A stretch of 29,459 nucleotides of DNA from a virus. A program made the position numbers and the translations under genes. Location: UHGV virus genome UHGV-0099905; one strand, written 5' to 3'. Below, one piece after another: positions 4,050-28,157 of this stretch (its first letter is position 1; every line of letters starts with the position of its first letter). The notes beneath the pieces were generated by a model. It saw nothing but the letters and a program-made list of their open reading frames with translations. It did no database searches and was not told the DNA's origin.

Positions 4050-4067
4050 GCTTCTAACCGTAATCTT

Positions 4068-4982: not shown

Positions 4983-5004
4983 AATAAGTAAGTATCTACT
5001 TATT
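4983..5004. promoter_or_regulatory. Palindromic motif copy AATAAGTA-agtatc-TACTTATT
   Basis: 8-bp perfect inverted repeat, 6-bp spacer, 40-60 nt upstream of the ATG at 4942; a TATAAT hexamer abuts it in gene orientation. Confidence 0.55.
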
Positions 5005-6729: not shown

Positions 6730-7278
6730 ATGAAACGTTCAGTTATTGCGGCTACTGTATTAGCATCTCTTTTTATGAGCGCAGGATCATTTGCAGCAGA
6801 AGGGAGTACAGAGGGTCAGTTAACTATTAACGGTAAAGTCACAGAGACTACATGTCAGTTCCTGAGCGGTAGTGAGAATACAACAATTTCGATGAGCGAA
6901 ATTGGTCGTGATCAATTTGAAAATGTAGAAGTTGGCTCCCCCGTTACTACTTATTCAAATACAACATCTTTACCACTAAAAGTTAAGTGTACCGGAGGAA
7001 AAGAACCAAGAATTACCTTCTCCAGCACCCAATTTGAAGGAACGGATTCAAATATTATTCGCAATACTGGTGATGCTAGCGGTGTCGGTTTCGCTGTTTT
7101 TTTGGGGAAAGGTACTGATTCTAGCAACCGGATTTCTGGTAATAGACCTATTAAGTTAACACCAACTACTAATGGTGAACATGAGTTACATTTTACGGCA
7201 CAATACGCAAAAACAGCTGTTGATGTGGGTACTGGCGAAGTTAGTTCTGCGATAACAATGACCGTTGTAACAGATTAA
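6730..7278 (+). CDS. Fimbrial major subunit (chaperone-usher pathway)
   Basis: Signal peptide MKRSVIAATVLASLFMSAGSFA, about 180 aa, first in operon before chaperone and usher; AGGA SD upstream. Confidence 0.7.
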   Translation: MKRSVIAATVLASLFMSAGSFAAEGSTEGQLTINGKVTETTCQFLSGSENTTISMSEIGRDQFENVEVGSPVTTYSNTTSLPLKVKCTGGKEPRITFSSTQFEGTDSNIIRNTGDASGVGFAVFLGKGTDSSNRISGNRPIKLTPTTNGEHELHFTAQYAKTAVDVGTGEVSSAITMTVVTD

Positions 7279-7333
7279 CATGATGTTTATCGGCGGCTTC
7301 GGTCGCCGATTTTCAATCGCAAGGATTGTTATC

Positions 7334-8014
7334 ATGAAAAAATTAATAGCCTTCTTACTAACCGTAACGGTCCCATCTGCGTGGGGCGGTGTCTATATTT
7401 ACGGCACTCGCGTTATTTATCCGGAACAGAAAAAAGAGATTGCAGTTCAGTTAATGAATGAAGGTGAGCGTAGTGCTCTTGTTCAGTCGTGGATTGATGA
7501 TGGCGATGCCAGCCTTCCTCCGGAAAAGATTAGTGTACCTTTTGTGCTGACTCCACCGGTAGTTCATGTTAGTAAGGGTGAAGGACAGCAACTGAAAATT
7601 AAACAACTGGCGAACACTCTACCTAAAGATCGCGAAAGTCTGTTCTTCCTTAATGTACTGGATATTCCACCTAATAGTGAGAAATACGAAGGCAAGAATC
7701 TGATTAAATTCGCGATGCAAAATCGTATCAAATTTATTTATCGCCCAAAGGGTATAACAAGAGTCGATAAAGAGAGTTTTTCCCGGATTAATATCAGACC
7801 CGTTGATAGAGGCATTAACATAAAAAATAATTCAGCGAACTGGATAACCATTCCTGAATTAACCGGGAATGCGAAAATTAATAAGGAGACACTACTGCTG
7901 GCACCCTGGTCAGATCAGACTGTCAAAACGACATCCGTTGTTAACTATTACAATGTTACTCTGATTGATGATCATGGAAACTATTTGAGTGAAAAAATAA
8001 AAACTGCCAAATAG
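7334..8014 (+). CDS. Periplasmic fimbrial chaperone (PapD-like)
   Basis: Classic chaperone N-terminal pattern GVYIYGTRVIYPE...; start moved to ATG at 7334 (MKKLIAFLL signal peptide) behind AAGGA, rather than the track start at 7280. Confidence 0.85.
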   Translation: MKKLIAFLLTVTVPSAWGGVYIYGTRVIYPEQKKEIAVQLMNEGERSALVQSWIDDGDASLPPEKISVPFVLTPPVVHVSKGEGQQLKIKQLANTLPKDRESLFFLNVLDIPPNSEKYEGKNLIKFAMQNRIKFIYRPKGITRVDKESFSRINIRPVDRGINIKNNSANWITIPELTGNAKINKETLLLAPWSDQTVKTTSVVNYYNVTLIDDHGNYLSEKIKTAK

Positions 8015-8031
8015 ATTATCAGGGATTGGTT

Positions 8032-10518
8032 ATGTCAAAGTTTAATTCTATTACACTGGCTATTCTGTCAGTATTAGCGACTTCGCATACATGGGCTAAG
8101 GGTGAAACGTTTAATACCAATTTTATGATTGGTGGTTTAAATGGGGAGAAAATTTCTAACTACCATATTGATAGTGATAAGCCGATGCCGGGTATCTACG
8201 CTATGGATGTTTATCTGAATAATCAATGGCGTGGCCACTATGATATTGATATTAAAGATGACCCTAATGCAACATGTTTATCCATGGAGCAATTAAAGCA
8301 AATTGGGATCCTCACTGAAGGAATTAGTATCGATAAAGGCGTAGAATGTGTACCACTTCGGGATGCTGTCCAGGGAGGCAGCGTCGACTATGATATTGGG
8401 CATTTTAACCTAAAATTAAGCGTGCCCCAAGCCTATGTTCTGGAATATGAACATGGCTATGTTCCGCCTGAAGCATGGGATCGCGGGATTAACGCATTAT
8501 ATACATCTTATTATGCCAGTCAGTATTACAGTGATTATAAAAACGGCGGAGATGATAAAAGTAGCTATCTAAATCTGAACAGTGGGTTAAATCTCCTGGG
8601 CTGGCAGCTGCATTCAAATGCCAATTATACGAAAAGCGACGAAAACAGCGGTAAATGGAAGAGTAACACGCTATATCTGGAACGTGGAATTCCACAAATT
8701 CTCGGCACGTTTCGCGCAGGTGAAATGTATACTGGTTCTGATGTTTTTGACTCCGTGCGTTTTCGCGGCGTGCGCCTTTGGCGCGATATGCAGATGTTAC
8801 CGAACTCTAAACAGAATTTTACTCCTGTGGTACGCGGCGTTGCCCAGAGTAACGCACTCGTCACCATAGAACAAAATGGTTTTGTGGTTTACCAGAAAGA
8901 AGTACCGCCAGGCCCATTCGCCATTGATGATTTGCAACTTTCTAATGGTGGGGCAGATTTGGAAGTTATCGTCAAAGAAGCTGATGGTTCAACGTCGTAC
9001 TATCGGGTGCCTTATTCATCGGTGCCAAATATGTTGCAACCTGGCGTTTCTAAATATGAATTTTCAGCCGGACGTAGTCATATTGAAGGAGCCAGCAATC
9101 AATCTGATTTTATCCAGGGAAGCTATAAGCATGGTTTCAACAATTTGCTGACAGGTTATGGCGGCACGCTGTTATCTGATAATTACTCATCGTTTGTTCT
9201 TGGAACAGGATGGAATACACCGATTGGTGCTATATCGGTTGATTTTACCCATTCATACAGCAAGCAAGACAACGGTGATGTGTTTAACGGTCAAAGTTAT
9301 CAGATTGCCTGGAATAAATATCTCTCTCAGAGCGGAACACAATTTTCTCTGGCGGCCTGGCGTTATTCCTCTCGGGGTTATCGTACTTTTAACGATCATG
9401 TATGGGCAAATAACAAAAATAGATACAATCGAGAAGACAACTCAGGCTATGACATTGCCAACTACTACCAGTATGATTTTGGTCGCAAGAATAGCTTTTC
9501 TTTAAATATCAACCAGTCATTACCGGAAAATTGGGGGTATCTGGCGATCAGCGGTCAATGGCGAGATTACTGGGAACGTAGCGGGACAGGGAAAAATTAC
9601 CAACTAAGCTATACGAACTCATGGGAACGTCTAAGTTATACCTTGTCGGTTAGCCAGACATACGATGAGGATAACAGCGAAGACAGACGCATTAACTTAT
9701 TTTTCTCAATCCCCTTCTCGTGGCGTGATAATATCACCGAAAAACGACGAGATTTATTTATCTCTAACTCGACCACATTTGATAAAGACGGCTACCAGTC
9801 AAATACTACCAGCCTCAGTGGTGTAGCTGGGAACCGTGATCAGTTCAGCTACGGGGCTAACTTTAGCCATCAACAACAGGACAGCGAAGCAACAGCAGGT
9901 GGAAATCTGATTTGGCGTGCGCCAGTGGCTACCATTGGTGGCAGCTATAGCCAGTCGAAAAAATATCAACAGATAAGTGGTAATATTCAAGGTGGTTTAG
10001 TCGCGTGGTCAGACGGGATAGCACTGGCTCCCAGACTTTCAGATACATTTACCATCGTCCATGCTCCGGGGCTGGATGGGGCTGCGGTACAGGGGTATCG
10101 TTACCTGAGCACGGATAGCCGAGGTTACGCTATTTATGACAGCCTGACGCCGTATCGTAAAAACACGTTGATGCTGGATACTTCTGACAGTCAAAGCGAT
10201 GTGGCACTACTGGGCAACCGTAAAAGCACCGCTCCTTATCGTGGGGCCGTTGTGATGACGCAGTTTGATACTGACAAACGTAAACCCTGGTATTTCCTTG
10301 CTCAGCGCCCGGATGGTTCTCCATTATCGTTCGGTTATGAAGTTGAAGATGAAAGCGGTAAGAATGTGGGCTTGGTAGGACAGGGAAGTCGGATATTTAT
10401 TCGCACTGATGATGTTCCCGCATCGATTCGCGTCTCGGTTAATAAACAGCAGGAACAATTCTGTACTATTACCTTTGATAAAGTTATCGAAGAGAATAAA
10501 GTTTATATTTGTCGTTAA
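8032..10518 (+). CDS. Fimbrial outer-membrane usher
   Basis: About 830 aa, signal peptide, usher N-terminal FNTNF motif, beta-barrel-type composition; ATG at 8032 behind AGGGA. Confidence 0.9.
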   Translation: MSKFNSITLAILSVLATSHTWAKGETFNTNFMIGGLNGEKISNYHIDSDKPMPGIYAMDVYLNNQWRGHYDIDIKDDPNATCLSMEQLKQIGILTEGISIDKGVECVPLRDAVQGGSVDYDIGHFNLKLSVPQAYVLEYEHGYVPPEAWDRGINALYTSYYASQYYSDYKNGGDDKSSYLNLNSGLNLLGWQLHSNANYTKSDENSGKWKSNTLYLERGIPQILGTFRAGEMYTGSDVFDSVRFRGVRLWRDMQMLPNSKQNFTPVVRGVAQSNALVTIEQNGFVVYQKEVPPGPFAIDDLQLSNGGADLEVIVKEADGSTSYYRVPYSSVPNMLQPGVSKYEFSAGRSHIEGASNQSDFIQGSYKHGFNNLLTGYGGTLLSDNYSSFVLGTGWNTPIGAISVDFTHSYSKQDNGDVFNGQSYQIAWNKYLSQSGTQFSLAAWRYSSRGYRTFNDHVWANNKNRYNREDNSGYDIANYYQYDFGRKNSFSLNINQSLPENWGYLAISGQWRDYWERSGTGKNYQLSYTNSWERLSYTLSVSQTYDEDNSEDRRINLFFSIPFSWRDNITEKRRDLFISNSTTFDKDGYQSNTTSLSGVAGNRDQFSYGANFSHQQQDSEATAGGNLIWRAPVATIGGSYSQSKKYQQISGNIQGGLVAWSDGIALAPRLSDTFTIVHAPGLDGAAVQGYRYLSTDSRGYAIYDSLTPYRKNTLMLDTSDSQSDVALLGNRKSTAPYRGAVVMTQFDTDKRKPWYFLAQRPDGSPLSFGYEVEDESGKNVGLVGQGSRIFIRTDDVPASIRVSVNKQQEQFCTITFDKVIEENKVYICR

Positions 10519-10528
10519 AGGATTTTTT

Positions 10529-11539
10529 ATGAAGAAATATTGGTTTTTGTTTTTGTTGATTATTCCATTTTTTGGGCAGGCGAAATGTACCCCTAAGGGA
10601 ACTTGGACAGCAACTCAACCAATTACACTGGACTTAACAACGGATTCAACAATAGTAAGTTTTAATCCCAACCTGCAAGGATCTTATGAATGTAACTCGA
10701 GGGGGGATAAGATGTATTTTGCAACAACGTTAGATGACTATATTGTTGAAATGAAAGATGGCTCCAGCAATAAGTCTATTTTTATTAAATTAAAGCTTGA
10801 GGCTGATGGATTTCCTGTAGAAACGAGTGGTTCGCTTCTGTCGCCTAAAACCTATTCTGTTGCTGATACCATTAATAATAAACAACTGAAGTTAACGGCC
10901 TCATATATACCACCAACTAAATATAGAAGTGATCGTGGTGAAGCGGTAGAGGGGGATTCATTCGAATTGAAAAAAGCGGCGGCTAATTTTTTGTCTGATA
11001 ATACATGTAGTTCAAATATTCTTTCATGGATAGCATGCTATGTTTTTGGATTGTTAAATAAAGGTGAAGCTTACGAACAAAAACTAACCATTAATGTTAA
11101 ACACAAACCCACAACCTGTCGTTTCTCGCAACCGACTTACGAAATAAGAATACCAGAAACAACGATAAGTGAAATGCTATCTGCCAATAACTCAAAATCA
11201 GGTTCTGTAGATCTGGTCCTAAATTGCGATAGTGTCTATAACGTCACGACTAATCCAGTGACTTTTAAAGTTGAGCGTGGTGTGTGGGATGATAGTGGAA
11301 CAATATTGAAAAATACATTGTCCGATGGTGCTAAGGGTGTAGGGTTCCAGATTTACAATGGTAATGCAACGACACCGTTAAAGCTGGGCGATACCCTGAT
11401 GAACAGATTACCTAAAATGGCGGCTATTCAGGAGCAGTACATCTTCCCGATTACCGCAAAATACGTTCGCGTGAAAGAGGAAGCTTTACAGCCTGGGGAA
11501 GTTCAAGGCCAGGCGATATTTGCCGTATCCTACGACTAA
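10529..11539 (+). CDS. Fimbrial minor subunit / tip adhesin candidate (two-domain size, about 337 aa)
   Basis: Signal peptide MKKYWFLFLLIIPFFGQA starting at ATG 10529 after SD AAAGGA; the track start at 10409 overlaps the usher and is rejected. Confidence 0.6.
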   Translation: MKKYWFLFLLIIPFFGQAKCTPKGTWTATQPITLDLTTDSTIVSFNPNLQGSYECNSRGDKMYFATTLDDYIVEMKDGSSNKSIFIKLKLEADGFPVETSGSLLSPKTYSVADTINNKQLKLTASYIPPTKYRSDRGEAVEGDSFELKKAAANFLSDNTCSSNILSWIACYVFGLLNKGEAYEQKLTINVKHKPTTCRFSQPTYEIRIPETTISEMLSANNSKSGSVDLVLNCDSVYNVTTNPVTFKVERGVWDDSGTILKNTLSDGAKGVGFQIYNGNATTPLKLGDTLMNRLPKMAAIQEQYIFPITAKYVRVKEEALQPGEVQGQAIFAVSYD

Positions 11540-11566: not shown

Positions 11567-11600
11567 CACGTACTTTCGGAGAGAAAGTACGTGTGTTTTT
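11567..11600 (+). terminator. Rho-independent terminator after the fimbrial operon
   Basis: 11-bp perfect stem CACGTACTTTC / GAAAGTACGTG, 5-nt loop, followed by TGTTTTT. Confidence 0.6.
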
Positions 11601-11717
11601 ATCCAGAGCGCCCTAAAACCCCGTCCTTCAGAGTGGAGGTATAAGGCGCACTGGATAAAATGATGGAGTAGTGGGCAATTAAGCTCTATAATTGCGTACA
11701 CATATTGAGTACACGAG

Positions 11718-11945
11718 GTGTTTATGCAATCTATTAACTTCCGTACCGCACGCAGCAATCTTACCGAAGTGCTCAACAATGTTGAAGCCGGAGAAGAGGT
11801 TGAAATCACCCGTAGAGGCCGTGAGCCAGCTGTAATTGTCAGCAAGGCCACTTTCGAAGCCTACAAAAAAGCGGCGCTGGATGCTGAATTCGCATCCCTG
11901 TTTGACACTCTGGACACCACCAATAAGAAACTGGTTAACCGATAA
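11718..11945 (+). CDS. phd: Phd antitoxin (P1-type)
   Basis: [64 protein letters not shown]... is near-identical to P1 Phd as recalled; overlaps doc by TAATG. Confidence 0.9.
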
Positions 11946-12322
11946 TGAGGCATATATCACCGGAAGAGCTTACTGCAATTCATGATGCGAATATAAGCCG
12001 CTACGGCGGCCTGCCAGGCATGTCAGATTCGGGAAGAGCTGAGGCTATTATCGGGAGAGTCCAGGCCAGAGTTGCATATGAAGAGATTACCGACCTTTTC
12101 GAAGTCTCCGCAACTTACCTGGTGGCTACTGCGAGAGGGCATATATTCAATGATGCCAATAAGCGTACCGCGCTAAACAGTGCGTTGTTATTTCTGCGCC
12201 GTAACGGTGTGCAGGTATATGATTCACCAGAACTGGCAGAGCTTACTGTGGGGGCTGCGACCGGAGAGGTATCCGTATCTACTGTCGTTGCCACGTTACG
12301 TAGATTGTATGGTACGGCGTAG
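11945..12322 (+). CDS. doc: Doc toxin (Fic-fold kinase, P1-type)
   Basis: MRHISPEEL...[26 protein letters not shown]... matches P1 Doc as recalled, including the Fic-like HxFxDANKR motif. Confidence 0.9.
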
Positions 12323-15128: not shown

Positions 15129-15854
15129 TCAACAGAATCGCCGTGCTTCTTCCAGTTCTTCCGGGAAGTGCGCGTAAATCACACGCTCAGGCACGATTTC
15201 CATCAACCAGACAGCGGAGAAGATGATACGGATGCGTTTATCTCGGGTAATGCCACGCAGACGCTCCAGAATCCACTCAAAATAGCGTTCCTGAATCGGG
15301 TCACGCTGCATGTCTCCAAGATGCTTAAAACTCACCAGAGAGTCATCCAGACGGGTTACAGCGCGTTTGGCTAACTTCTCTTCGAATATCTCGATCAACT
15401 CGGGCTGCCAGAGATGCTGGGGGCGCGGTAATTTGTCCCACAGCCGTCGTGCAGCTGCGGAAAGAACGGTGGAGATAAAGTAGTCGTATGAGCAGCAATA
15501 GCGGTCAGCAAACTGGCGTGCTTTCCAGAGCGACGTTTTGTTGACCGTCGACAACTCCTGATATGGCACACGCTTCAGACCGGTTGTGAATGGAGCCGTC
15601 TCATAGTGTTCACGACCATGCGACAGCATGATGTATGAGTACTGGCGCTTGTATGCCTCAGTGAAAAGGCATGTGGCCATAAGTGGGTGCATGTCGCGGT
15701 AATCAAACCACTTCGTCTCGAAGAGTTCAGCCTCGTCTTTACAGCGCGACAAACCAATGTTTTCAGCGACCCACTTGTCCATAACAGCGGTATTCCACTC
15801 TGTCATGAAATCGTACTGGTCATTGTCGATAGTGTTGAAGAAGATCTGGCTCAC
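15129..15854 (-). CDS. Hypothetical protein (241 aa), first gene of the helicase-primase operon
   Basis: ORF in track; GTG start at 15854 behind AAGGGA; motif copy immediately upstream. Confidence 0.55.
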   Translation of the reverse strand: MSQIFFNTIDNDQYDFMTEWNTAVMDKWVAENIGLSRCKDEAELFETKWFDYRDMHPLMATCLFTEAYKRQYSYIMLSHGREHYETAPFTTGLKRVPYQELSTVNKTSLWKARQFADRYCCSYDYFISTVLSAAARRLWDKLPRPQHLWQPELIEIFEEKLAKRAVTRLDDSLVSFKHLGDMQRDPIQERYFEWILERLRGITRDKRIRIIFSAVWLMEIVPERVIYAHFPEELEEARRFC

Positions 15855-15866
15855 ATGATTCCCTTT

Positions 15867-15890
15867 AATAGGTATGTACTTACTTATCTA
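15867..15890. promoter_or_regulatory. Motif copy AATAGGTATGTACTTACTTATCTA
   Basis: Near-identical to the copy at 24921-24944 (21 of 22 aligned positions); directly upstream of the replication operon. Confidence 0.55.
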
Positions 15891-16904: not shown

Positions 16905-16920
16905 AGCTGACACTGTACTT

Positions 16921-16959
16921 ATGCATTGGCGCGTACATTGCGCCAATGCATAATTTTTA
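16921..16959. terminator. Bidirectional terminator between the convergent GIY-YIG gene and the partition operon
   Basis: 12-bp perfect inverted repeat ATGCATTGGCGC-N7-GCGCCAATGCAT followed by AATTTTTA. Confidence 0.6.
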
Positions 16960-20230: not shown

Positions 20231-20554
20231 TTATTGCAATCCATTTTTTACGCCATACGCGGCCAATCCTAAAAGCAGTACGGTAATAATGAACGACGTT
20301 ATTTTCGAAACAATGCCGCCAAAGAACCCACTGGAGATGGTGTCGAGCCGGTTAAGAAGTTTGTCCAGATTGGAGTGCTGAATGCTGTGTTGTGCGGGCG
20401 TCATATCGCCAAAGTAGGTTTTGAGCTGGTCATTGACCTCCTGACCAATTTCCTCGCGTATTTCTTTACCTAATTTGCCTACGACTTCCCGAGCAACGAT
20501 TGAGGCGATGCGCTCAACCTGTTCAGTTGTGACTCCCGCCATCTCGTTCGACAT
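20231..20554 (-). CDS. Holin-like small membrane protein (single C-terminal TM)
   Basis: 107 aa from the ATG preceded by GGAGGA; C-terminal TM ITSFIITVLLLGLAAYGV; first gene of the lysis-like cassette; an extended -10 (TGGTATAAAT) lies upstream. Confidence 0.4.
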   Translation of the reverse strand: MSNEMAGVTTEQVERIASIVAREVVGKLGKEIREEIGQEVNDQLKTYFGDMTPAQHSIQHSNLDKLLNRLDTISSGFFGGIVSKITSFIITVLLLGLAAYGVKNGLQ

Positions 20555-20620
20555 GTTTTCCTCCATGAAAAGTCAAATCGGGATGGCGAATTTATACCAC
20601 AAATATTACCTTTTTTGTAG

Positions 20621-20632
20621 GTAAGTACTTAC
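20621..20632. promoter_or_regulatory. Perfect 12-bp palindrome GTAAGTACTTAC (motif copy) upstream of the lysis-like cassette
   Basis: Overlaps the stop codon of the Gly-rich gene; followed at about 25 nt by TGGTATAAAT. Confidence 0.5.
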
Positions 20633-21423
20633 ACACGAGAACCGTATATTGCTCCGACGGCGATCCATTGAGGGGCATTACCCATGACAGCAGCCCCAGC
20701 AGCCCCACCGCCATATCGATTTCCAGAGTTGCCATAACACGCTCCACCTGCCGCTCCAACATTGCCACCAGTACCGCCATGATTAGCGTTAACCCCAGAC
20801 CCAGTACCTGGAGCAGTAAGCGAAGCGGCCCCAGCAGCAGCACCACCATTGCCTGAATACCTACCTGCAGCACCAAATGGCCTGCCACCGCCACCACCTA
20901 CCAGATAGGCTCCGACAAAGCCGGCATCCCAATAGCCACCACCGCCACCACCGCCACCACCGCCACCACCGGCAATAGCACCATTATTGGTAATACGTAG
21001 TCTAGTTCCTATTGCATTCTTAATCGCGGCCCCACCAGCAGAACCCGCTGAGTTTGACCCGCCATTTCCTCCTCTCCCATATATGGTAACTCCACCATTA
21101 ATTACGAGGTTAATATATGAGTTTGATAAGTCACCAGGAAAGTCTAGGCAAGGGACTGTACTACTTGTAGAAACTAAATCCCCTGTAATAGTAACTACTA
21201 CAGGTGTAGAGCCAACAGAGCGTAAATATGATATTAATGTGTCTTTGTTATAATTGTGATTAGCCCCTATTGAGTAGTAAATCTCTTTTGACCTACCGGC
21301 CATCTGTGACATATTTCCTGCTGCCGACAATTGGACTGTGGTACGGGCAGCACTCATCCAACGTTGCCCTGTTTCGGAAACCGCTGATGATCCTATCCAT
21401 CCTGGAACATTTGAAATTGACAC
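20629..21423 (-). CDS. Glycine-rich protein (264 aa) downstream of the side tail fibre gene
   Basis: ORF in track; GTG start after GAGAGGG; central G12 run and GG/GN repeats; N-terminal non-repetitive domain. Confidence 0.6.
   Translation of the reverse strand: MSISNVPGWIGSSAVSETGQRWMSAARTTVQLSAAGNMSQMAGRSKEIYYSIGANHNYNKDTLISYLRSVGSTPVVVTITGDLVSTSSTVPCLDFPGDLSNSYINLVINGGVTIYGRGGNGGSNSAGSAGGAAIKNAIGTRLRITNNGAIAGGGGGGGGGGGGYWDAGFVGAYLVGGGGGRPFGAAGRYSGNGGAAAGAASLTAPGTGSGVNANHGGTGGNVGAAGGACYGNSGNRYGGGAAGAAVMGNAPQWIAVGAIYGSRV
20936..20973. repeat. Simple-sequence repeat (CCACCACCG)x4 encoding the poly-Gly run
   Basis: Seen directly; the 9-bp unit keeps the reading frame. Confidence 0.9.
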
Positions 21424-21485
21424 AATAACCCTCTCAAATATTATGACAGTTTATTATGGGAGAGGTCTTAGCCTCTCCAACATTA

Positions 21486-24400
21486 TCATATTTTTTGTTC
21501 AATGATTGCTGCCAGCTCTTTAACAGCCTCAATAAGAAGTGCTATTTGTGCAGAATTTGAAATAGTCAGAACATCTTCGCCATTTGCATCTTTGTAAGCT
21601 GAAACAGCTTCCGGTAAAACCTTTTGGAGTTCCTGAGCAACAACACCCGCCTCACGACGAACCGTACTAGATTGAAAATTTTCCTTTTTATCGTAAATTA
21701 ATCCGCTCAGTACTTTCACCTTACTCAGAGCATTTTTAATCGGTGCGAAGTTACTTTTAAGTCTGGCATCAGAGCGGATATAAACATCGTTAAAGTTACC
21801 ATTACCTCCACAAACCCAAGTACCATCATTTTGAAGATATGCGTTCGCATCCGTGCCATTCGCGGTACGTGAGTTGTTGATCATGTAAAAACCAAACTGA
21901 CTGTTTCCCAAGCCACCCACAAAGAATTTGCGATCCGCGTGGTCTTGTCTCAACAACGCTTGTGCAGAGCTTGTGCTTACAGCATTCTTCCCGAAGATGA
22001 CGTTCTGGCTCCGCATATCGATCCATGCGCCAGAACCGCTGTTGATAGAGTAGCTGTTGGCATAAACCCATGCACTTGACGTGATATCCCCCGTTACACT
22101 CAACGGCTTAAGGCTTTGCAACGTGCCATTAGTGAACCGAAAAACATGGGCATTATTTGCATAAACATCAAGAATGCCATCACCATTCTGTTTTAAGCCA
22201 GTATCATTATCGCCTAATACGATAGAGTTTCCGCCAAGCGCATTCGACACCCCTAATCCGACGCTACCGTTAATTACTGCCCCATTACTAATATCAACGC
22301 CATTTCCAAGTGTCACTCGTCCTGTTGTATTGCTAATATATAGTGGACGTAAAGGTCCCCAACTTCCATGTTGATCACCTGAATTTGTCAACAGAAAGTA
22401 AGTATTCGCCCCATCATTTCGAATGAAGAAGCCATAATTCCCATATACTGCACGGAAAGCATTTGCTGTTTCGGAAACCACCTCTCCATTTATACTCATT
22501 GTAATAGTATTGTCAGTGTTTCTCTGACTGTAAAAGTGATAGCCTTGATCGTCTTTGAATTCAATTACCGTTGGCCTTGAAGAATTTCCCCATACCTGCA
22601 TATAAGTATTCAGTGACGGAGTTTCAGTAGTCTGCACCCTGAATACTTTCCCGTTTGAATTTTGAAATCCAAGTGACCCGGTTAAAGTTCCTCCGGTTAA
22701 TTTCAAAAAGAGTGCATCAATCCATCCAGCGAAACCCGGTTTATTGATATACACGTTGCCATCATTGGCAAATATACCACCACCAGGTGATCTTAATGGC
22801 TGCGACATATTCGCCAAAGTCAATTGGCCTGACATTGAATCGCCAGCTCGATTAAAGTCGCGCCTCCAGCCTGGCGCATAAGAGTCACCGTGGTTGATGT
22901 AGGTAAACTGAGCCTTGACGGTTCCGCCATTCGTTGCCGTCGTGGGGGTAGTGACGCGAATCGTCATAGCATCCCGAACCCCCATAACTTCAACTACAGC
23001 GCCAGCGAGTTGTATATTCCCACAACCGGTATCCGTGATGATTTTATTGGCAGCGTAAGACCAAGAGCCTTTGCACATCCAGTATGGATAATTGAATGCC
23101 CCCTGAGACTCCAACCACTCAATAAATTGCGCCGTCGTCCAGTTGTTGCTGTCTCCCCCAATACTGATACTGCCGCCAGCAGCTTTCGCTGCGCCAATAT
23201 TTTTTGCGAAGGTGTCTTTGCTAGGTATATCCGCGCCATTCTGGTCTTTCCGAAGGCGTGTTTCAGCATTGTCGTATGCGGCCTTCACGGCCTTTGATGT
23301 GGCCGCATAACTTTCACTGCTATTGTTGGTATCACTGTTAAGCTGAACAAGCCCCTTTTGCGACGTGGTGGCGTCCTGTGCAGTGTATTTGCCATTAGCA
23401 AGATCATATGCTGTCTTTACTGCTTTTGGGGTGGCTGCAAATGACTCCGATTCGCTATTAGTTGAGCTACTAAGTTGTACTATTCCCTTATTCGTCGTGC
23501 TTGCATCCTCAAGCGCCACGGCGGATGCAATATCCTCAGCTCGTTTTGCCGCTGTCTCAGAGCGTGTTGCCGCGGATTCTGCCGCATTTTTGCTCTGCGC
23601 AGCCGCCGTCGCACTGTCTGCCGCTTCCGTCGCCTTCGTTGATGCCGTTGTCGCACTCTCTGCTGCCGCTGACGCCTGGCGAGCGGCCTCATCTTTTGAA
23701 GATGACGCCGAGGAAGCTGAAACAGAGGCAGAGCTTGCAGATTCGGCTGCTGTCTCCTTAGAAGCAGCGGCATTGTCTTCTGAAGTCTTTGCATTGGTTT
23801 CAGAAGATTTTGCCGCCTCTGCTGACTTTTCCGCAGCTGTTGCCTGTTTCGTCGCCTCTGTCGCTTTAGCGGTGGCATTTGCCGCGGATAACGAAGCGCT
23901 TTCCGCAGACTTTTCTGCCGACGTTGCACTTGATGAAGCACTATCCGCGCTTACTGAGGCCGCGCTCGCTGACGTTTCTGCCGCAGATTTCGAACTGTTT
24001 GCAGACAATGCACTCTGTTCGGCAGCAGATTCAGACGCTTTTGCGTTTGTCTCTGATGCTTTTGCTGCCTTACATGAATTTGCAGCTTCTGTAGCTGATG
24101 ATGCTGCCGCGTTTGCACTCGATGAAGCGTTAGTCTCTGATAATTTAGCCGCATCCTTAGATGCAGAGGCACTGGACGCTGATGTGGCTGCCTCCGATGC
24201 TTTAGTCGACGCCACAGATGCTGATTCTGCTGCCGCTTCTTTTGCCGCTTCTGCGTTTGTTTCAGATTTTTCCGCAGCAGCTGCACTCTCACTCGCCGCA
24301 CTTTGTGAAGATACCGCAGCGGATGCACTTTGAGATGCCTGAGAGGCTTTTTCTACAGCAGTGTTGGCACTTTCTGCCGCAGCGACAGCACTGGCCGCCG

Positions 24401-24875
24401 CCTCCCGAGCTTTGTCTCCAGCGGCCTCAATCGCATCGGTGTTATTTTTATACCACTCAACGTTTTCGTTATGCTCGTTGACGATCTGCATTAGCGGCTT
24501 AACGGTCACTTCTGTACCGTCTTCACGCTCGATTGTCACATCATCCAGAGCGGTCAACCAACTGCGCATGGACTTGGAATCAGCCGACATACGCGACATT
24601 AGTGCAGTAAAGCGCGCACTAAACTGAGTTAAGTCGCCTTCATAGGTCGTAATGATTCGGCACGGAACTTTAGATTGAGTTTCGCCGGTATAAGGTTCTG
24701 AGAGGACAATGACCGTATCACTGGTTACGCGCTTGACCTCATACAACTTATTGTCAGGACCAATGACAATCATGCCCGGTAACACGCCGTTTTCGGTCAA
24801 ATTCCAACGTGTTCCGATGCCTGATATTGTGTCGCTTCCTTTTGTAAATGTAACAGTACCTTCCCTGTACCACAT
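21486..24875 (-). CDS. Side tail fibre protein (lambda Stf-like) with Ala/Ser-rich coiled-coil region, phage fibre repeats and C-terminal S74-type intramolecular chaperone
   Basis: KRAEDIASAVALEDASTTNKGIVQLSSSTNSESESFAATPKAVK closely matches the lambda Stf repeat as recalled; C-terminal SDARLK...VLPEAV chaperone/autocleavage pattern; start moved to ATG 24875 behind AAGGAG (the track ORF begins 31 codons upstream). Confidence 0.85.
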   Translation of the reverse strand: MWYREGTVTFTKGSDTISGIGTRWNLTENGVLPGMIVIGPDNKLYEVKRVTSDTVIVLSEPYTGETQSKVPCRIITTYEGDLTQFSARFTALMSRMSADSKSMRSWLTALDDVTIEREDGTEVTVKPLMQIVNEHNENVEWYKNNTDAIEAAGDKAREAAASAVAAAESANTAVEKASQASQSASAAVSSQSAASESAAAAEKSETNAEAAKEAAAESASVASTKASEAATSASSASASKDAAKLSETNASSSANAAASSATEAANSCKAAKASETNAKASESAAEQSALSANSSKSAAETSASAASVSADSASSSATSAEKSAESASLSAANATAKATEATKQATAAEKSAEAAKSSETNAKTSEDNAAASKETAAESASSASVSASSASSSKDEAARQASAAAESATTASTKATEAADSATAAAQSKNAAESAATRSETAAKRAEDIASAVALEDASTTNKGIVQLSSSTNSESESFAATPKAVKTAYDLANGKYTAQDATTSQKGLVQLNSDTNNSSESYAATSKAVKAAYDNAETRLRKDQNGADIPSKDTFAKNIGAAKAAGGSISIGGDSNNWTTAQFIEWLESQGAFNYPYWMCKGSWSYAANKIITDTGCGNIQLAGAVVEVMGVRDAMTIRVTTPTTATNGGTVKAQFTYINHGDSYAPGWRRDFNRAGDSMSGQLTLANMSQPLRSPGGGIFANDGNVYINKPGFAGWIDALFLKLTGGTLTGSLGFQNSNGKVFRVQTTETPSLNTYMQVWGNSSRPTVIEFKDDQGYHFYSQRNTDNTITMSINGEVVSETANAFRAVYGNYGFFIRNDGANTYFLLTNSGDQHGSWGPLRPLYISNTTGRVTLGNGVDISNGAVINGSVGLGVSNALGGNSIVLGDNDTGLKQNGDGILDVYANNAHVFRFTNGTLQSLKPLSVTGDITSSAWVYANSYSINSGSGAWIDMRSQNVIFGKNAVSTSSAQALLRQDHADRKFFVGGLGNSQFGFYMINNSRTANGTDANAYLQNDGTWVCGGNGNFNDVYIRSDARLKSNFAPIKNALSKVKVLSGLIYDKKENFQSSTVRREAGVVAQELQKVLPEAVSAYKDANGEDVLTISNSAQIALLIEAVKELAAIIEQKI

Positions 24876-24895
24876 GTTCTTTTTCACTCCTTGAA

Positions 24896-24919
24896 GTGTG
24901 GGCGTCCCCCCGCCCACAC
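24896..24919. other. GC-rich hairpin (9-bp stem GTGTGGGCG / CGCCCACAC, 6-nt loop) in the 5' leader of the tail-fibre gene
   Basis: Seen directly between the motif copy and the RBS. Confidence 0.5.
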
Positions 24920-24920
24920 A

Positions 24921-24944
24921 AATAGGTATATACTTACTTATTAT
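24921..24944. promoter_or_regulatory. Motif copy AATAGGTATATACTTACTTATTAT
   Basis: Near-identical to the 15867-15890 copy; 45-70 nt upstream of the tail-fibre ATG. Confidence 0.55.
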
Positions 24945-25012
24945 CCATGATACAAAATCCTTTTGCACTAAGAAAACACGCTATATACATTGCTGCTCAT
25001 TATTCCTATCAA

Positions 25013-26533
25013 TTAACTGATGCCCGACATGGAAAATGCGCCACTTCCACGGCTGATTAGCATCACGGGCGAATAAATATGTGTCTGTGATGAACTGGTC
25101 ACTTTTACCGTAACAGCAACAGTTCTTGAGGTAACATTGTTAAAAGCAGCGTAAAGAGTGCCACCGACGCCTGTAGAACTTGTCGAATTAAGATCAGGGT
25201 CTCTGTATGTTGCCCCCTTACCAGTGGTTGCGGTCTTCGTCACTCCATTGCAGGTAAATTGGGCTGCAACAGGGCCGACGCCCCCCGTATATACATTTAT
25301 TGCCACATAAATATTTTTGGGCAATGCAGACGAAGAAGAGTCTGTATATGTCATTGTATATGTGCCGTTGTAACGAACTGAGAAGTCATTGCCCACATAC
25401 ATGTTAGCGACATCGCCTACGAAGTGATCTGCTTGTACCGTGCCTCTGAATGTTCCGCTGGTAGCCTGTATTTCTCCTGTGAATTTGCCATTCGTTGCGT
25501 AAACGGTGCCTCTAACAGTTACATTGTTAAACTCTGAGTTCCCGTTTTTATTAATATGCCACCCCGTCATCCCGCTTGAGTAATCGTTGGACTGAATGAA
25601 GTTGCCTATTTTGGCGTTATCAATGGTGCCGTTCTTGATATAAGCTCCGTTCATATAAGCCACACCGGCATCAATAACGAATGGCGTTGTAATTTTCCCA
25701 TTAACGGAGTTCACCAAACCAAAGCGATCTGCCTGCACCAAAAACTGCGATAGACCTGTTGTGTCGATGCCCAACGCTATGCCGGCAACATATTTTTGGC
25801 CTCCGCTGGTGGAGGTTTCCATTTTCAGCGTCCAGGCTGTTGATACCTTCTTGTTCGTATCAGCAATAGCTGTGGCCTGTTGTTGAATTGTTGCTGTATT
25901 TCCATCTACTGATGCTTTTAAGGTGTCAACTCTCCCACTTAGTGCATTGTCGGCGCTTGACGCATCAAACGTCACCTTGAAGCGCATCGTCTGGTGTTCA
26001 GCGCCGACTCGCTCGGTTTTCTCGCGTTTGTCCTCATCGACCGGCTCGTCATCGCCACGGGAGAGCGCTTCCAGCGCTTCAAGATCGATAACGGACGCTT
26101 TGGCGAGTGTTGCCGCCATTTCGTCGTCATACGGGGCGATATCGGACAACCGGTAGTCGATTTCAGACTGGATTTCTTCGATTAAGCGCTGCAAAGCGAC
26201 CTGATCGTCTTCGCCGTAGCGCTCGTTGTCGACGAGGGAAATCTGTTTAGCCACCAGATCGTTAATTTTGCCCACGGAGATGACGGGAACCGTTGAAATG
26301 CCCTGCTCCATCGCGGCACGCCAGCGGTGTTCACCACCGAGGATCTCAAAAATGCCCCCGTCCAACTCCCGCGCCAGAATTGGCTTAAAAAAGCCCAATT
26401 TTTCGATAGAGCCTTTCAGTTTTTCGAAGTTTTGCGCCCCAACGGAGTTGGTATTCCAGGGATTCGGACGCAGGTTCGCGACTTCCACCTGCAGAATCGT
26501 AATTTTCACACCCATAATTCTGATACAATCCAT
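25013..26533 (-). CDS. Chimeric protein: N-terminal ParB/Srx-like nuclease domain fused to a lambda J-type (host-specificity / tail-tip) C-terminal region
   Basis: N-terminal LRPNPWN...ILGGEHRWRAA resembles ParB box motifs; an acidic linker follows; the C-terminal half (FLVQADRFGLVNSVNGKITTPFVIDAGVAYMNGAYIKNGTIDNAKIG...) resembles the C-terminal receptor-binding part of J-like proteins; single uninterrupted ORF. Confidence 0.55.
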   Translation of the reverse strand: MDCIRIMGVKITILQVEVANLRPNPWNTNSVGAQNFEKLKGSIEKLGFFKPILARELDGGIFEILGGEHRWRAAMEQGISTVPVISVGKINDLVAKQISLVDNERYGEDDQVALQRLIEEIQSEIDYRLSDIAPYDDEMAATLAKASVIDLEALEALSRGDDEPVDEDKREKTERVGAEHQTMRFKVTFDASSADNALSGRVDTLKASVDGNTATIQQQATAIADTNKKVSTAWTLKMETSTSGGQKYVAGIALGIDTTGLSQFLVQADRFGLVNSVNGKITTPFVIDAGVAYMNGAYIKNGTIDNAKIGNFIQSNDYSSGMTGWHINKNGNSEFNNVTVRGTVYATNGKFTGEIQATSGTFRGTVQADHFVGDVANMYVGNDFSVRYNGTYTMTYTDSSSSALPKNIYVAINVYTGGVGPVAAQFTCNGVTKTATTGKGATYRDPDLNSTSSTGVGGTLYAAFNNVTSRTVAVTVKVTSSSQTHIYSPVMLISRGSGAFSMSGIS

Positions 26534-26535
26534 TG

Positions 26536-26553
26536 TATAAGTACTTACTTACC
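26536..26553. promoter_or_regulatory. Motif copy TATAAGTACTTACTTACC (contains palindrome TAAGTACTTA) in the divergent intergenic region
   Basis: Lies 3 nt from the ATG of the minus-strand gene and about 45 nt upstream of the plus-strand helicase ATG. Confidence 0.5.
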
Positions 26554-26597
26554 ATAATAGCCAATTACCATACAAAAGGCACGAAGGAAAGAGGTTT

Positions 26598-28157
26598 ATG
26601 ACAGTTCGGATTGTATCGAATGCAGTCAATGCGCTGATTTCTAGCGCTGATGACAACGTGAAGCGGCTCGTTCAGGAGATGTTGAGCTATGAAGTGGAGG
26701 CTGGGGACTGGAAAGGAACCAGCACGATGTTCAACTGGAGCAAAAACGCGTTCCCGGCTGGGTTTGCGAAGCCAGTTGCAGCCAACCTTCTGAAAGCTGG
26801 CATCAAATGCGTGCATGTGCGCAAGGAAAAAGCTCCCGCGCTGGGCAAGCCGAACCCGGTAGTTAACCCATTCCCGTATAACCCGGACTATGCGTATCAG
26901 GATCAGACAGTGGAAACACTGGTGCGCGAAGGGATGATGATTGCCCAGATTGCGACGGGTGGCGGTAAATCGAACGTAGCGTGTAAGGCTGCTGCTCGCA
27001 TTGGTCGTATGACGCTGTTTTTAACCACGCGATCGGTTCTGATGTTCCAGATGGCAGAGAACTTCCAGAAATCCATCGACTACCGCGCGGAGAATGGCGA
27101 GCCGTGGCTGAAAGGTCAGAGAGTTGGGGTGATTGGATCGGGTGAGTTCCAGGTCTCGCGCCATATCAACGTTGCCACGGTGCAGACCCTGGCCAGTTTT
27201 CTCGAAGAGCCACCGCGCGACGCATCACCGGAGAAAAAACAGTACCACCTGAAGCGCCGGGAACTGGTTAAACGCTTCCTGTCCAGCGTTTCTCTGCTGA
27301 TTCTGGAAGAGGCACACGAATCATCTGGTTCTAACTTCTACGACATCGCCCGGTTGTGCATCAATGCCGACTACCGTCTGGCGCTGACAGCTACGCCGTT
27401 CATGAAGGACTCGACTGAAGCAAATATGCGTCTCATGGCCGTTGCGGGTCGCATCGAGATAAAAGTAACGGAGAAATATTTGATCGACAGAGGTATTTTA
27501 GCGAAACCATACTTTTTATATCATAAAATCGCGTACACTCCAGATGAGGCGCGGATTAGAGCCGAACTTGCTTCAAAACACCTGAATTTTCGGGTTGGAA
27601 TGAGCACGGCTTACCAGAAAGCCTATCAGTTAGGCATCGTCTATAATCTGGGCCGCAACGAAGCTATTGTGCGTGAAGCGCTAATGTACAAGAGTCACGG
27701 TCTGAACTGTATGACATTGGTTCGTCTGAAGCGTCATGGTCAGATCTTGATGGAAATGATGAAAGAGAGTGGCCTCAAGGTCGATTTCATCTACGGAGAA
27801 TCAAACCAGACTACCCGACAAGCAAAACTTAATAGTCTGGCGGCAGGCAAGATAGATGTTCTCATTGGTTCAACCATTCTGGATGTTGGTGTCGACGTTC
27901 CAAGCGTAGGCGCGGTGATTCTGGGTGGTGGCGGGAAAGCAGAAGTTGAAATGAGACAGCGTGTCGGTCGTGGCTTACGAGCCAAGAAAAATCAGGCTAA
28001 CGTGTGCTTTATTACCGACTTCATCGACGTGAGCAACAAATACCTCATGTCGCATTCATATGAGCGGAAACACATTATCGACACGACGCCTGGGTTTGCC
28101 GAGGGGGTCTTGCCGGTTGGCAGCACATTCGATTTCACTGTTTTGGATAGAGAGTAA
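26598..28157 (+). CDS. Superfamily II DNA/RNA helicase (DExH-type variant)
   Basis: Motif I QIATGGGKSN, motif II LLILEEAHE, motif III LTATPF, motif VI QRVGRGLR. Confidence 0.8.
   Translation: MTVRIVSNAVNALISSADDNVKRLVQEMLSYEVEAGDWKGTSTMFNWSKNAFPAGFAKPVAANLLKAGIKCVHVRKEKAPALGKPNPVVNPFPYNPDYAYQDQTVETLVREGMMIAQIATGGGKSNVACKAAARIGRMTLFLTTRSVLMFQMAENFQKSIDYRAENGEPWLKGQRVGVIGSGEFQVSRHINVATVQTLASFLEEPPRDASPEKKQYHLKRRELVKRFLSSVSLLILEEAHESSGSNFYDIARLCINADYRLALTATPFMKDSTEANMRLMAVAGRIEIKVTEKYLIDRGILAKPYFLYHKIAYTPDEARIRAELASKHLNFRVGMSTAYQKAYQLGIVYNLGRNEAIVREALMYKSHGLNCMTLVRLKRHGQILMEMMKESGLKVDFIYGESNQTTRQAKLNSLAAGKIDVLIGSTILDVGVDVPSVGAVILGGGGKAEVEMRQRVGRGLRAKKNQANVCFITDFIDVSNKYLMSHSYERKHIIDTTPGFAEGVLPVGSTFDFTVLDRE

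Follow-up and report, generated by a model that had tools for sequence, protein, structure and literature searches.

A mosaic, presumably self-cleaving side tail fibre with a Gp38 adhesin and a conserved leader hairpin in an SSU5-like phage-plasmid remnant

Introduction

Which kind of tail fibre is encoded by the long open reading frame (ORF) on the minus strand of the virus genome UHGV-0099905, where does its gene begin, and what might the GC-rich hairpin in its leader be for? The window, i.e. the whole stretch of 29,459 nucleotides (nt) that was analysed, contains at 21486..24968 of this strand a six-frame ORF of 1160 amino acids (aa), which the mechanical ORF list starts from GTG 24968. A first-pass annotation had described it as an Stf-like side tail fibre with a mis-called start, a hairpin in the 5' leader and a self-cleaving C-terminal chaperone. 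Here we propose that the product of this locus is very probably the side tail fibre of a siphovirus phage-plasmid of the SSU5 type, a mosaic protein that would cleave itself and carry a Gp38 adhesin, and that the copy found in the window is probably a relic.

Results and Discussion

The C-terminal chaperone and the Gp38 adhesin

The end of the fibre gene and the gene that follows it consist of three parts:

21774..22328, minus strand: tip, residues 850-1034, which would be kept after cleavage and is the presumed docking end for Gp38 (sequence matches)
21489..21773, minus strand: Peptidase_S74 intramolecular chaperone at the extreme C-terminus, residues 1035-1129 (Pfam PF13884)
20629..21423, minus strand: Gp38 receptor-recognising adhesin, 264 aa, GTG start (Pfam GP38 E 2e-70, Gp38_N E 5e-15)

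The first-pass annotation had read an S74-type signature in the C-terminus and had named a lack of similarity to S74 domains in profile searches as one part of what would refute it. The profile PF13884 was matched over residues 1035-1091 with a score of 54.8 bits, above its curated cut-off of 22, and an E-value of 1.1e-14, and the accompanying Ser/Lys motif is present as well. Cleavage is predicted between R1034 and S1035 in DVYIR^SDARLK, where S1035 and K1040 stand five residues apart (S-D-x-R-x-K), and the stretch SDARLK aligns with SDRRIK of the S16 gp37 chaperone in a match to 6F45_A that runs across the site. In S16 gp37 the last 113 residues are an intramolecular chaperone that is autocleaved after trimerisation, an event reported to expose the docking surface for Gp38 (PMC7917993). 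The cleavage sites of S16 (DLNVS^SDRRIKK) and of the fPS phages, T4-like phages of Yersinia (DVYIR^SDGRLKI), align with one another (PMC7917993), and the motif in the window is almost exactly that of the fPS phages.

The gp38 gene begins directly downstream, 62 nt past the fibre stop codon. The first-pass annotation missed this neighbour, which alters what the cleavage is for. The window Gp38 matches the structure of S16 gp38 (6F45_D) at E 8e-47, the glycine-rich receptor-binding part being aligned too, and T-even gp38 proteins are 65-70% identical to it over approximately its first 150 aa. Its N-terminal Trp residues are conserved (GWIGSS...GQRW aligned with PWVGSS...GQNW of S16 gp38); a role of such Trp 'prongs' in the attachment domain is described in PMC7917993.

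By analogy with gp37 of S16 and T2, the S74 chaperone would assist the folding of the trimer and would then cut itself off between Arg1034 and Ser1035. The fibre tip would thereby be exposed, and Gp38 would dock there via its conserved N-terminal domain, so that Gp38 and not the fibre would act as the receptor-binding protein. At the other end of the molecule, the family-specific anchor would fix the trimeric fibre near the tail tip. Two points weigh against this scheme. Firstly, we infer cleavage, trimerisation and docking of Gp38 from homology alone. Secondly, the residues just before the cleavage site are nearer to Mu S than to S16 gp37: the tip matches residues 342-446 of Mu S and only residues 19-55 of S16 gp37 in 6F45_A. 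The latter chain aligns only with fibre residues 875-911 and with the chaperone domain (E 8e-13), and as the residues beside the cleavage site are Mu S-like, the docking surface cannot be mapped from 6F45.

A comparison with SSU5 shows how unevenly this region is conserved. The tip (residues 850-1034) is about 88% identical between the two elements, Gp38_N 55% and the chaperone about 35%, and the receptor-binding domains of the adhesins are unrelated. The docking interface, i.e. tip plus Gp38_N, would thus seem to persist through exchanges of the chaperone and of the receptor-binding domain. Over the 56 nt that span the cleavage motif (21751-21806), the DNA agrees at 91% of positions with that of distal tail fibre genes from T4-like phages of Cronobacter and Enterobacter. 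This match, together with the drop in identity to SSU5 from about 88% to about 35% at the motif, fits a recombination joint, and the cleavage motif is likely to be the joint at which a chaperone-adhesin cassette is swapped.

Another kind of variability was seen within gp38, where a tandem 9-nt repeat (GCCACCACC, plus strand) at 20935-20979 encodes a poly-Gly run. This run has 12 Gly in the window, 9 in p1919D62-2 and 3 in p2017-01-4CC_1, a variation that points to repeat slippage in a glycine-rich adhesin motif.

Modular composition of the fibre

From the N-terminus to the tip, the fibre can be divided into the following modules:

24426..24875, minus strand: SSU5-family N-terminal anchor, residues 1-150 (PHROGs 3299, 6129 and 22609, E 1e-88 to 1e-96)
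23511..24425, minus strand: Ala/Ser-rich shaft, residues 151-455, similar to residues 205-394 of lambda orf-401
23256..23501, minus strand: two Phage_fiber_2 repeats, residues 459-540 (Pfam PF03406, E 6e-31, two stretches; also in Mu S, 5YVQ and 8JU3, and in lambda Stf)
22335..23270, minus strand: distal shaft, residues 536-847, comprising a part like Mu S/S' (536-679) and a Gp34_trimer domain (758-847) (PDB, Pfam)

Among solved structures, the anchor matches the F2-pyocin side fibre 25ve_A (E 1e-4) and 23gd_B (E 4e-5), one match being named 'distal tail protein gp20'. The earlier remark that the N-terminal 150 residues or so do not resemble lambda Stf holds: comparison of residues 1-150 with lambda Stf gave an E-value of 12 in BLASTP, no match in hmmsearch with a hidden Markov model built from 40 SSU5-type N-termini, and a probability of 1.7% in hhalign. 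The fibre and lambda Stf both match PHROGs 8713, 295 and 1419 over the same profile columns, which may reflect either mosaic families or a very remote homology.

The central region is a different matter. Ala and Ser make up 56-66% of residues 151-450, and with the low-complexity filter off the shaft is 60% identical to lambda Stf (orf-401) over 164 aa (E 1e-24), so the resemblance to lambda Stf claimed for the Ala/Ser-rich centre is real. With the filter on, only the Phage_fiber_2 repeat still aligns (76% over 50 aa). At the DNA level the shaft is 72-84% identical to side tail fibre genes of lambdoid phages. Further on, structures of Mu S/S' are the best PDB matches for residues 536-679 and 790-1034, with E-values of 5e-82 (8JU3) and 9e-74, and the Gp34_trimer domain is found both by Pfam (PF21446, E 5e-23) and by the T4 gp34 structures 4UXE and 5NXF (E 1e-28). 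The label 'Stf-like' suits the middle third only and not the distal half, which is like Mu S, T4 gp34 and T-even gp37.

In relatives, the same N-terminus tops fibres of 737 to 1588 aa, and many close relatives have a different distal half that is followed by a gene for a tail fibre assembly protein (Tfa) in place of gp38. With one N-terminus on fibres of such varied length, and with other distal halves attached to it, modular exchange among these fibres, which the first-pass annotation had suggested, is well supported by the sequences compared. It is very unlikely that the fibre is of the lambda Stf/Tfa type, binding the receptor itself and followed by a mere assembly chaperone like T4 gp38, for although the central third is similar to lambda Stf and many close relatives have a Tfa gene where gp38 would be, nothing in the C-terminal half resembles lambda orf-314, the downstream protein falls in the GP38 adhesin family and matches S16 6F45_D, and the fibre ends in an intramolecular chaperone, so that a Tfa is not needed.

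Comparison with known fibre systems

The self-cleaving, Gp38-carrying fibre proposed here can be compared with five known systems. The gp37-gp38 pair of S16 and T2 (6F45) is similar in that the fibre ends in a Peptidase_S74 domain with the SDxRxK motif and the adhesin gene lies directly downstream; the window Gp38, like S16 gp38, has a Trp-bearing N-terminal attachment domain and a glycine-rich receptor-binding domain. The differences are that the carrier is a siphovirus-type phage-plasmid and not a T-even myovirus, that a single chain of 1129 aa with its own anchor takes the place of the gp34-37 series, and that the tip before the cleavage site is Mu S-like, unlike that of S16.

The closest counterpart is the fibre SSU5_021 with the adhesin SSU5_022. 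The two loci have in common the N-terminus, the Gp34_trimer and Peptidase_S74 domains, Gp38_N, the gene order and the leader architecture of motif, hairpin and Shine-Dalgarno (SD) sequence. They differ in the adhesin, which has 178 aa in SSU5 as opposed to 264 aa in the window, in the Phage_fiber_2 repeats, for which the SSU5 fibre has no Pfam match, and in that SSU5 is a complete phage. Judging from the anchor (PHROGs 3299 and 22609), from 92 related loci and from the gene order, the window fibre belongs to the fibres of SSU5-family phage-plasmids.

Lambda Stf (orf-401/orf-314) is likewise a tail side fibre whose gene comes just after J, and it shares the Ala/Ser-rich shaft and the Phage_fiber_2 repeat at 60-76% local identity. 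Its N-terminal anchor shows no detectable similarity save for a 6-residue stretch at positions 74-79, and its distal half differs as well: no match to orf-314 was found, and an intramolecular chaperone together with Gp38 replaces Tfa. The fibre S of Mu and P1 with its chaperone U (5YVQ, 8JU3) provides the best solved matches to the distal shaft and tip of the window fibre, at residues 490-680 and 790-1034 with E-values from 1e-74 to 5e-82. In Mu S the conserved joint YVR-D is followed by the protein's own receptor-binding tip, whose folding is handled by a separate chaperone, U, whereas in the window fibre the equivalent joint YIR^SD is followed by the predicted self-cleaving chaperone and a separate adhesin.

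Finally, the endosialidase of K1F and T5 pb1 have a chaperone of the same Pfam family at the same C-terminal position, and in endoNF the residues Ser911 and Lys916 show the same spacing of five as S1035 and K1040. The PDB chains of K1F endosialidase and T5 pb1 gave no direct sequence match at E below 0.01. Both proteins use the matured tip itself to bind their receptor or substrate, unlike the Gp38-carrying tip proposed here.

Start codon of the fibre gene

Two elements define the beginning of the gene:

24873..24875, minus strand: true start codon ATG of the fibre gene (N-termini of relatives, upstream stops, RefSeq)
24887..24892, minus strand: Shine-Dalgarno sequence AAGGAG (in the leader alignment AGGAG is invariant and AAGGAG occurs in 33 of 35 leaders)

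ATG 24875 is the start of the fibre gene. It lies 93 nt, or 31 codons, downstream of GTG 24968 within the six-frame ORF, and the SD sequence (24892..24887 when read along the minus strand) is separated from it by a spacer of 11 nt. The N-terminus MWYREGT begins at the equivalent ATG in all 92 related loci retrieved with a DNA pattern. A further set of fibres, retrieved with peptide patterns, starts with MWYREGT likewise, and in both sets the sequence 5' of the ATG diverges. An in-frame stop is present at most 23 codons upstream of the ATG in 39 of 52 distinct relatives, among them the 99.5%-identical p1919D62-2. The earlier statement that the ORF overshoots the true start by 31 codons thus agrees with the relatives, with the upstream stops and with RefSeq. 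The term 'mis-called start', on the other hand, is justified for six-frame calling but not for any annotation, since the Prokaryotic Genome Annotation Pipeline (PGAP) gives a 3390-nt gene from this very ATG in two near-identical plasmids, and the window fibre of 1129 aa is identical to RefSeq WP_033546631.1, which already begins at ATG 24875.

Codons 1-6, AUG UGG UAC AGG GAA GG (24858-24875), have near-invariant synonymous sites across the relatives, as opposed to codons 8-11, which vary, and the codon for Arg4 is always the rare AGG or AGA. This invariance suggests that the translation initiation region is under a nucleotide-level constraint.

The element that carries the fibre gene

The window resembles SSU5-like phage-plasmids (SSU5, Cyrano, CMS-2020a) across the replication, lysis and fibre genes, and the order of J, fibre, adhesin, holin and endolysin agrees with that of SSU5. 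The state of the element can be read from the ORF upstream of the fibre gene:

25013..26533, minus strand: ParB N-terminal domain fused to the C-terminal 314 aa of the tail-tip protein J, 506 aa in all (Pfam ParB_N and Phage_Tail_Tip)

The junction of this fusion is near residue 192. Residues 193-506 are, with one mismatch, the C-terminus of the 1524-aa J of p1919D62-2, an intact relative which has the full-length J and tail assembly genes, and RefSeq flags both halves of the fusion ORF as pseudogenes. Compared with this relative, the ParB-J fusion marks a deletion that took out virion genes. Four plasmids contain the region 20500-26700 of the window at over 99% identity and over 80% coverage. 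One of them, pLAO59 (99.9% identical over this region), is a plasmid of 111.5 kb with an IncY replicon and many resistance genes; its SSU5-like portion is a block of about 30 kb equivalent to the window, and genes for head or tail are absent from its annotation. In the window, the genes for fibre and Gp38 are themselves intact. With the head and tail genes lost and only a truncated J left, fused to ParB, the fibre copy of the window is most likely an unused relic in a plasmid remnant that is unable to build a virion.

Motif and hairpin in the leader

The leader of the fibre gene contains two elements upstream of the SD sequence:

24922..24941, minus strand: near-palindromic AT-rich motif of 20 nt, ATAAGTAAGTATATACCTAT (four sites in the window against 0.01 expected)
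24896..24919, minus strand: GC hairpin GUGUGGGCG-GGGGGA-CGCCCACAC with 9 perfect pairs, 7 of them G-C, and a free energy of -19.3 kcal/mol (fold prediction)

With up to 3 mismatches the motif (ATAAGTAAGTAnnTACTTAT) is found in the window at 1375-1394, 4984-5003, 15868-15887 and 24922-24941, and weaker variants lie near 4060, 15986, 20612 and 26534. The sites are intergenic, 10-70 nt ahead of gene starts. Upstream of the fibre gene the motif is kept at the same position in relatives, and its 5' edge, not an ORF end, is the reason why the first-pass annotation had drawn the end of the locus at 24944. In SSU5 and Cyrano the motif is present at several late-operon junctions and is usually followed by a GC hairpin; in the window two nt separate its 3' edge from the hairpin. 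The promoter/terminator scan listed neither a sigma-70-like promoter nor a terminator at the fibre leader, and the motif has no usable -10 element. The leader of motif, hairpin and SD is one of a series of intercistronic units in the late operons of SSU5-type elements.

The 9-bp GC hairpin between motif and ribosome-binding site that the first-pass annotation had pointed out is indeed there, and its cautious proposal that the hairpin is functional gains strength from the conservation and covariation described below. The window has 2 perfect hairpins with a stem of 9 bp or more and 7 or more G-C pairs, where Markov shuffles lead one to expect 0.07. A clean, uninterrupted hairpin (at least 5 bp) is present within the last 50 nt in 44 out of 56 distinct 70-nt leaders that precede MWYREG-type fibre genes; as the leader sequences are interrelated, this count and those that follow are not to be read as probabilities. 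In an alignment of 35 distinct leaders made with MAFFT, the 8-pair stem is 89% paired, in comparison to 24-49% with slid partners. Three stem pairs show compensatory changes (G-C/A-U/G-U, C-G/U-A and G-C/U-A), and the observed covariation score was reached by none of 500 shuffles. The comparison of leaders thus presents the hairpin as an RNA structure under selection, clearly maintained.

The geometry of the leader is conserved as well. The stem ends 3-5 nt ahead of the SD sequence across the leaders, and the SD is unpaired in the predicted fold, i.e. according to the model the hairpin does not sequester it. In the window the loop GGA (24907..24905) sits 17 nt upstream of the GGA of the SD (24890..24888). 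The usual loops in relatives are AAGGAU(A), AUGGAU and GGGGAU. A GGA is in the loop or the closing pair in 31 of the 44 clean hairpins, and in every one of these 31 the SD GGA follows 17-23 nt on (17-20 nt in 30 of them).

A covariance model of hairpin plus SD scored the fibre leaders at 53.9, 50.9 and 28.1 bits, the last value being that of the window; elsewhere in the same genomes it found only the terminator at the MCP/Ig junction, and that weakly (17.2 bits). An Rfam scan of 20400-26700 returned no family for the leader. The same scan gave sub-threshold scores of 24.6 and 21.1 bits (gathering threshold 100) for isrG in the Ala/Ser-rich coding region, which were treated as chance. A limited literature search found nothing relevant on SSU5 promoters, on late-gene control elements or on CsrA with phage tail fibres, and the Cyrano paper contains no transcript mapping.

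What the leader hairpin may do

Three functions of the hairpin were weighed. We rank first, tentatively, that between J and the block of fibre, gp38 and lysis genes it could act as an attenuator or insulator derived from a terminator, or else as a stem that protects a 3' end; a 5' stabiliser comes second and a clamp of the CsrA type third. An origin from a terminator is consistent with several observations. At the MCP/Ig and major-tail/13 junctions of both SSU5 and Cyrano, a hairpin, a T-run and an SD in this order make up canonical terminators, and in both the MCP/Ig terminator is also preceded by the AT-rich motif. At the M/L junction of SSU5, motif and hairpin are followed by a T-rich stretch. 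More distant relatives of the fibre have a canonical terminator at the equivalent spot, without the motif. The 3' flanks after the stem are T-rich in the leaders from Salmonella and Yersinia and range among relatives from UUUUC to AAAUC.

Other observations speak against the attenuator. The stem of the window is followed by CUUCAAGG (CUUC), with two T only, and the terminator scan omits the hairpin; in the absence of a U-tract it would be a weak terminator if it is one. The 3' flank in the E. coli lineage is AAATC. Moreover, a terminator does not account for the GGA that is kept in the loop at a distance of 17-20 nt from that of the SD.

Rather unlikely, in our view, is that the hairpin forms the 5'-terminal stem-loop of a separate fibre-gp38 message, whose 5' end would be set either by a factor-dependent promoter lying in the motif or by processing inside the motif, the stem-loop blocking both 5'-end-dependent decay and interference of upstream sequence with the SD. 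The block of motif, hairpin, SD and N-terminus moves with the fibre gene whether J or a DUF4376 protein is encoded upstream, and in the window, as in Cyrano, the motif stands ahead of many genes. The stem, which begins 1-3 nt past the motif, stops at -17 to -21 from the start codon, just clear of the -20 to +19 footprint of the ribosome (PMC4347634), and the free SD of the predicted fold would suit such a role too. However, the lack of a sigma-70-like promoter and of a usable -10 argues the other way, and a canonical terminator after the same motif, as at MCP/Ig, makes little sense for a promoter.

We consider it improbable that the hairpin is one half of a clamp in which host CsrA, or another reader of GGA loops, bridges the GGA of the loop and that of the SD and so represses translation of the fibre. 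The idea draws on the near-fixed spacing between the two GGA in the 31 of 44 clean hairpins mentioned above, and on loops of the family such as GC-AAGGAU-GC that fit the core CARGGAUG of the CsrA consensus RUACARGGAUGU, which was obtained by systematic evolution of ligands by exponential enrichment (SELEX) and has its GGA in a hairpin loop (PMC4347634). A CsrA dimer can span two sites when 10-63 nt separate them, best when the distance exceeds 18 nt (PMC10746276), and the 17 nt of the window fall within this range. The context of the SD is CAAGGAG, codons 2-6 (GUACAGGGAAGG), which scarcely vary at synonymous sites, fit the consensus at 10 of 12 positions, and several other late-operon hairpins of SSU5 and Cyrano have GGA loops. 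As a precedent, CsrA represses a gene that is carried extrachromosomally, namely cel, the lysis gene of ColE7 (PMC2896534). Against this, the window loop GGGGGA lacks the ACA that is invariant in SELEX, the relatives having GCA-AGGAU, and AGGA is also simply SD-like, purine-rich and common near ribosome-binding sites. The sequences counted are related and not independent samples, the Cronobacter lineage and distant relatives have no GGA loops, and the enrichment is modest (5 of 20 intergenic hairpins in Cyrano against a baseline of 12% over all hairpins). A tblastn search with E. coli CsrA gave no significant match in the window or the related loci examined.

As to the late operons in general, approximately 5 of 9 intercistronic GC hairpins have a GGA loop, namely those before TerS and at the major-tail/13, TMP/M, M/L and J/fibre junctions. 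In the Cyrano locus they are at 95-116, 9848-9868, 15167-15186, 15558-15580 and 22468-22490, and in SSU5 at the equivalent junctions. The M/L hairpin of SSU5 contains ACAGGAUGU, the core of the CsrA SELEX consensus, and some of the GGA-loop hairpins are canonical terminators. One may speculate that these hairpins, which often adjoin the AT-rich palindromic motif, form a shared class of regulatory RNA in SSU5-type late operons to which host CsrA or an RNA-binding protein of the phage binds, a proposal that we regard as doubtful. If it is true, translation, termination or mRNA decay of late genes in phage-plasmids, Y. pestis pMT1 relatives among them, would be tied to the physiology of the host.

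Significance

The fibre protein as such is ordinary: it is one more mosaic tail fibre, it is in RefSeq with the right start, and SSU5 has the same architecture. Its value is as an example of how receptor-binding modules move, a T-even-type chaperone-Gp38 cassette having apparently been joined to the fibre of a siphovirus phage-plasmid exactly at the cleavage motif. Exchange of the chaperone and of the receptor-binding domain around a preserved docking interface is a pattern of use for host-range prediction and for fibre engineering. SSU5-like phage-plasmids are common carriers of resistance genes in Enterobacteriaceae. The leader is more interesting than the protein, with its covarying stem-loop, conserved GGA loop, fixed spacing to the SD and 20-nt motif, and it seems to mark a family of intercistronic control elements in SSU5-like phage-plasmids.

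Other features of the window

A second GC hairpin lies between the fibre stop and the gp38 start:

21459..21478, minus strand: hairpin GGAGAGG-CUAAGA-CCUCUCC with no U-tract after it (read from the sequence)

On the opposite strand, 21417-21444 (plus) matches the sigma-70 consensus at 11 of 12 positions (TTGACA, 16 nt, TATTAT) and points antisense into the 3' end of the fibre gene.

Comparison with the annotation of pLAO59 places cargo genes of the SSU5-like remnant at 6730-11539 (plus strand), 11679-12322 and 51-1004. They comprise a chaperone-usher fimbrial operon (yehD-like subunit, chaperone, usher and adhesin), a phd/doc toxin-antitoxin pair, which is found also in P1/P7-type phages, and a gene for a PAS-domain chemoreceptor that adjoins IS26. 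Two further long perfect inverted repeats are present in the window, one at 16919-16953 with a 14-bp stem and one at 11567-11593 with an 11-bp stem.

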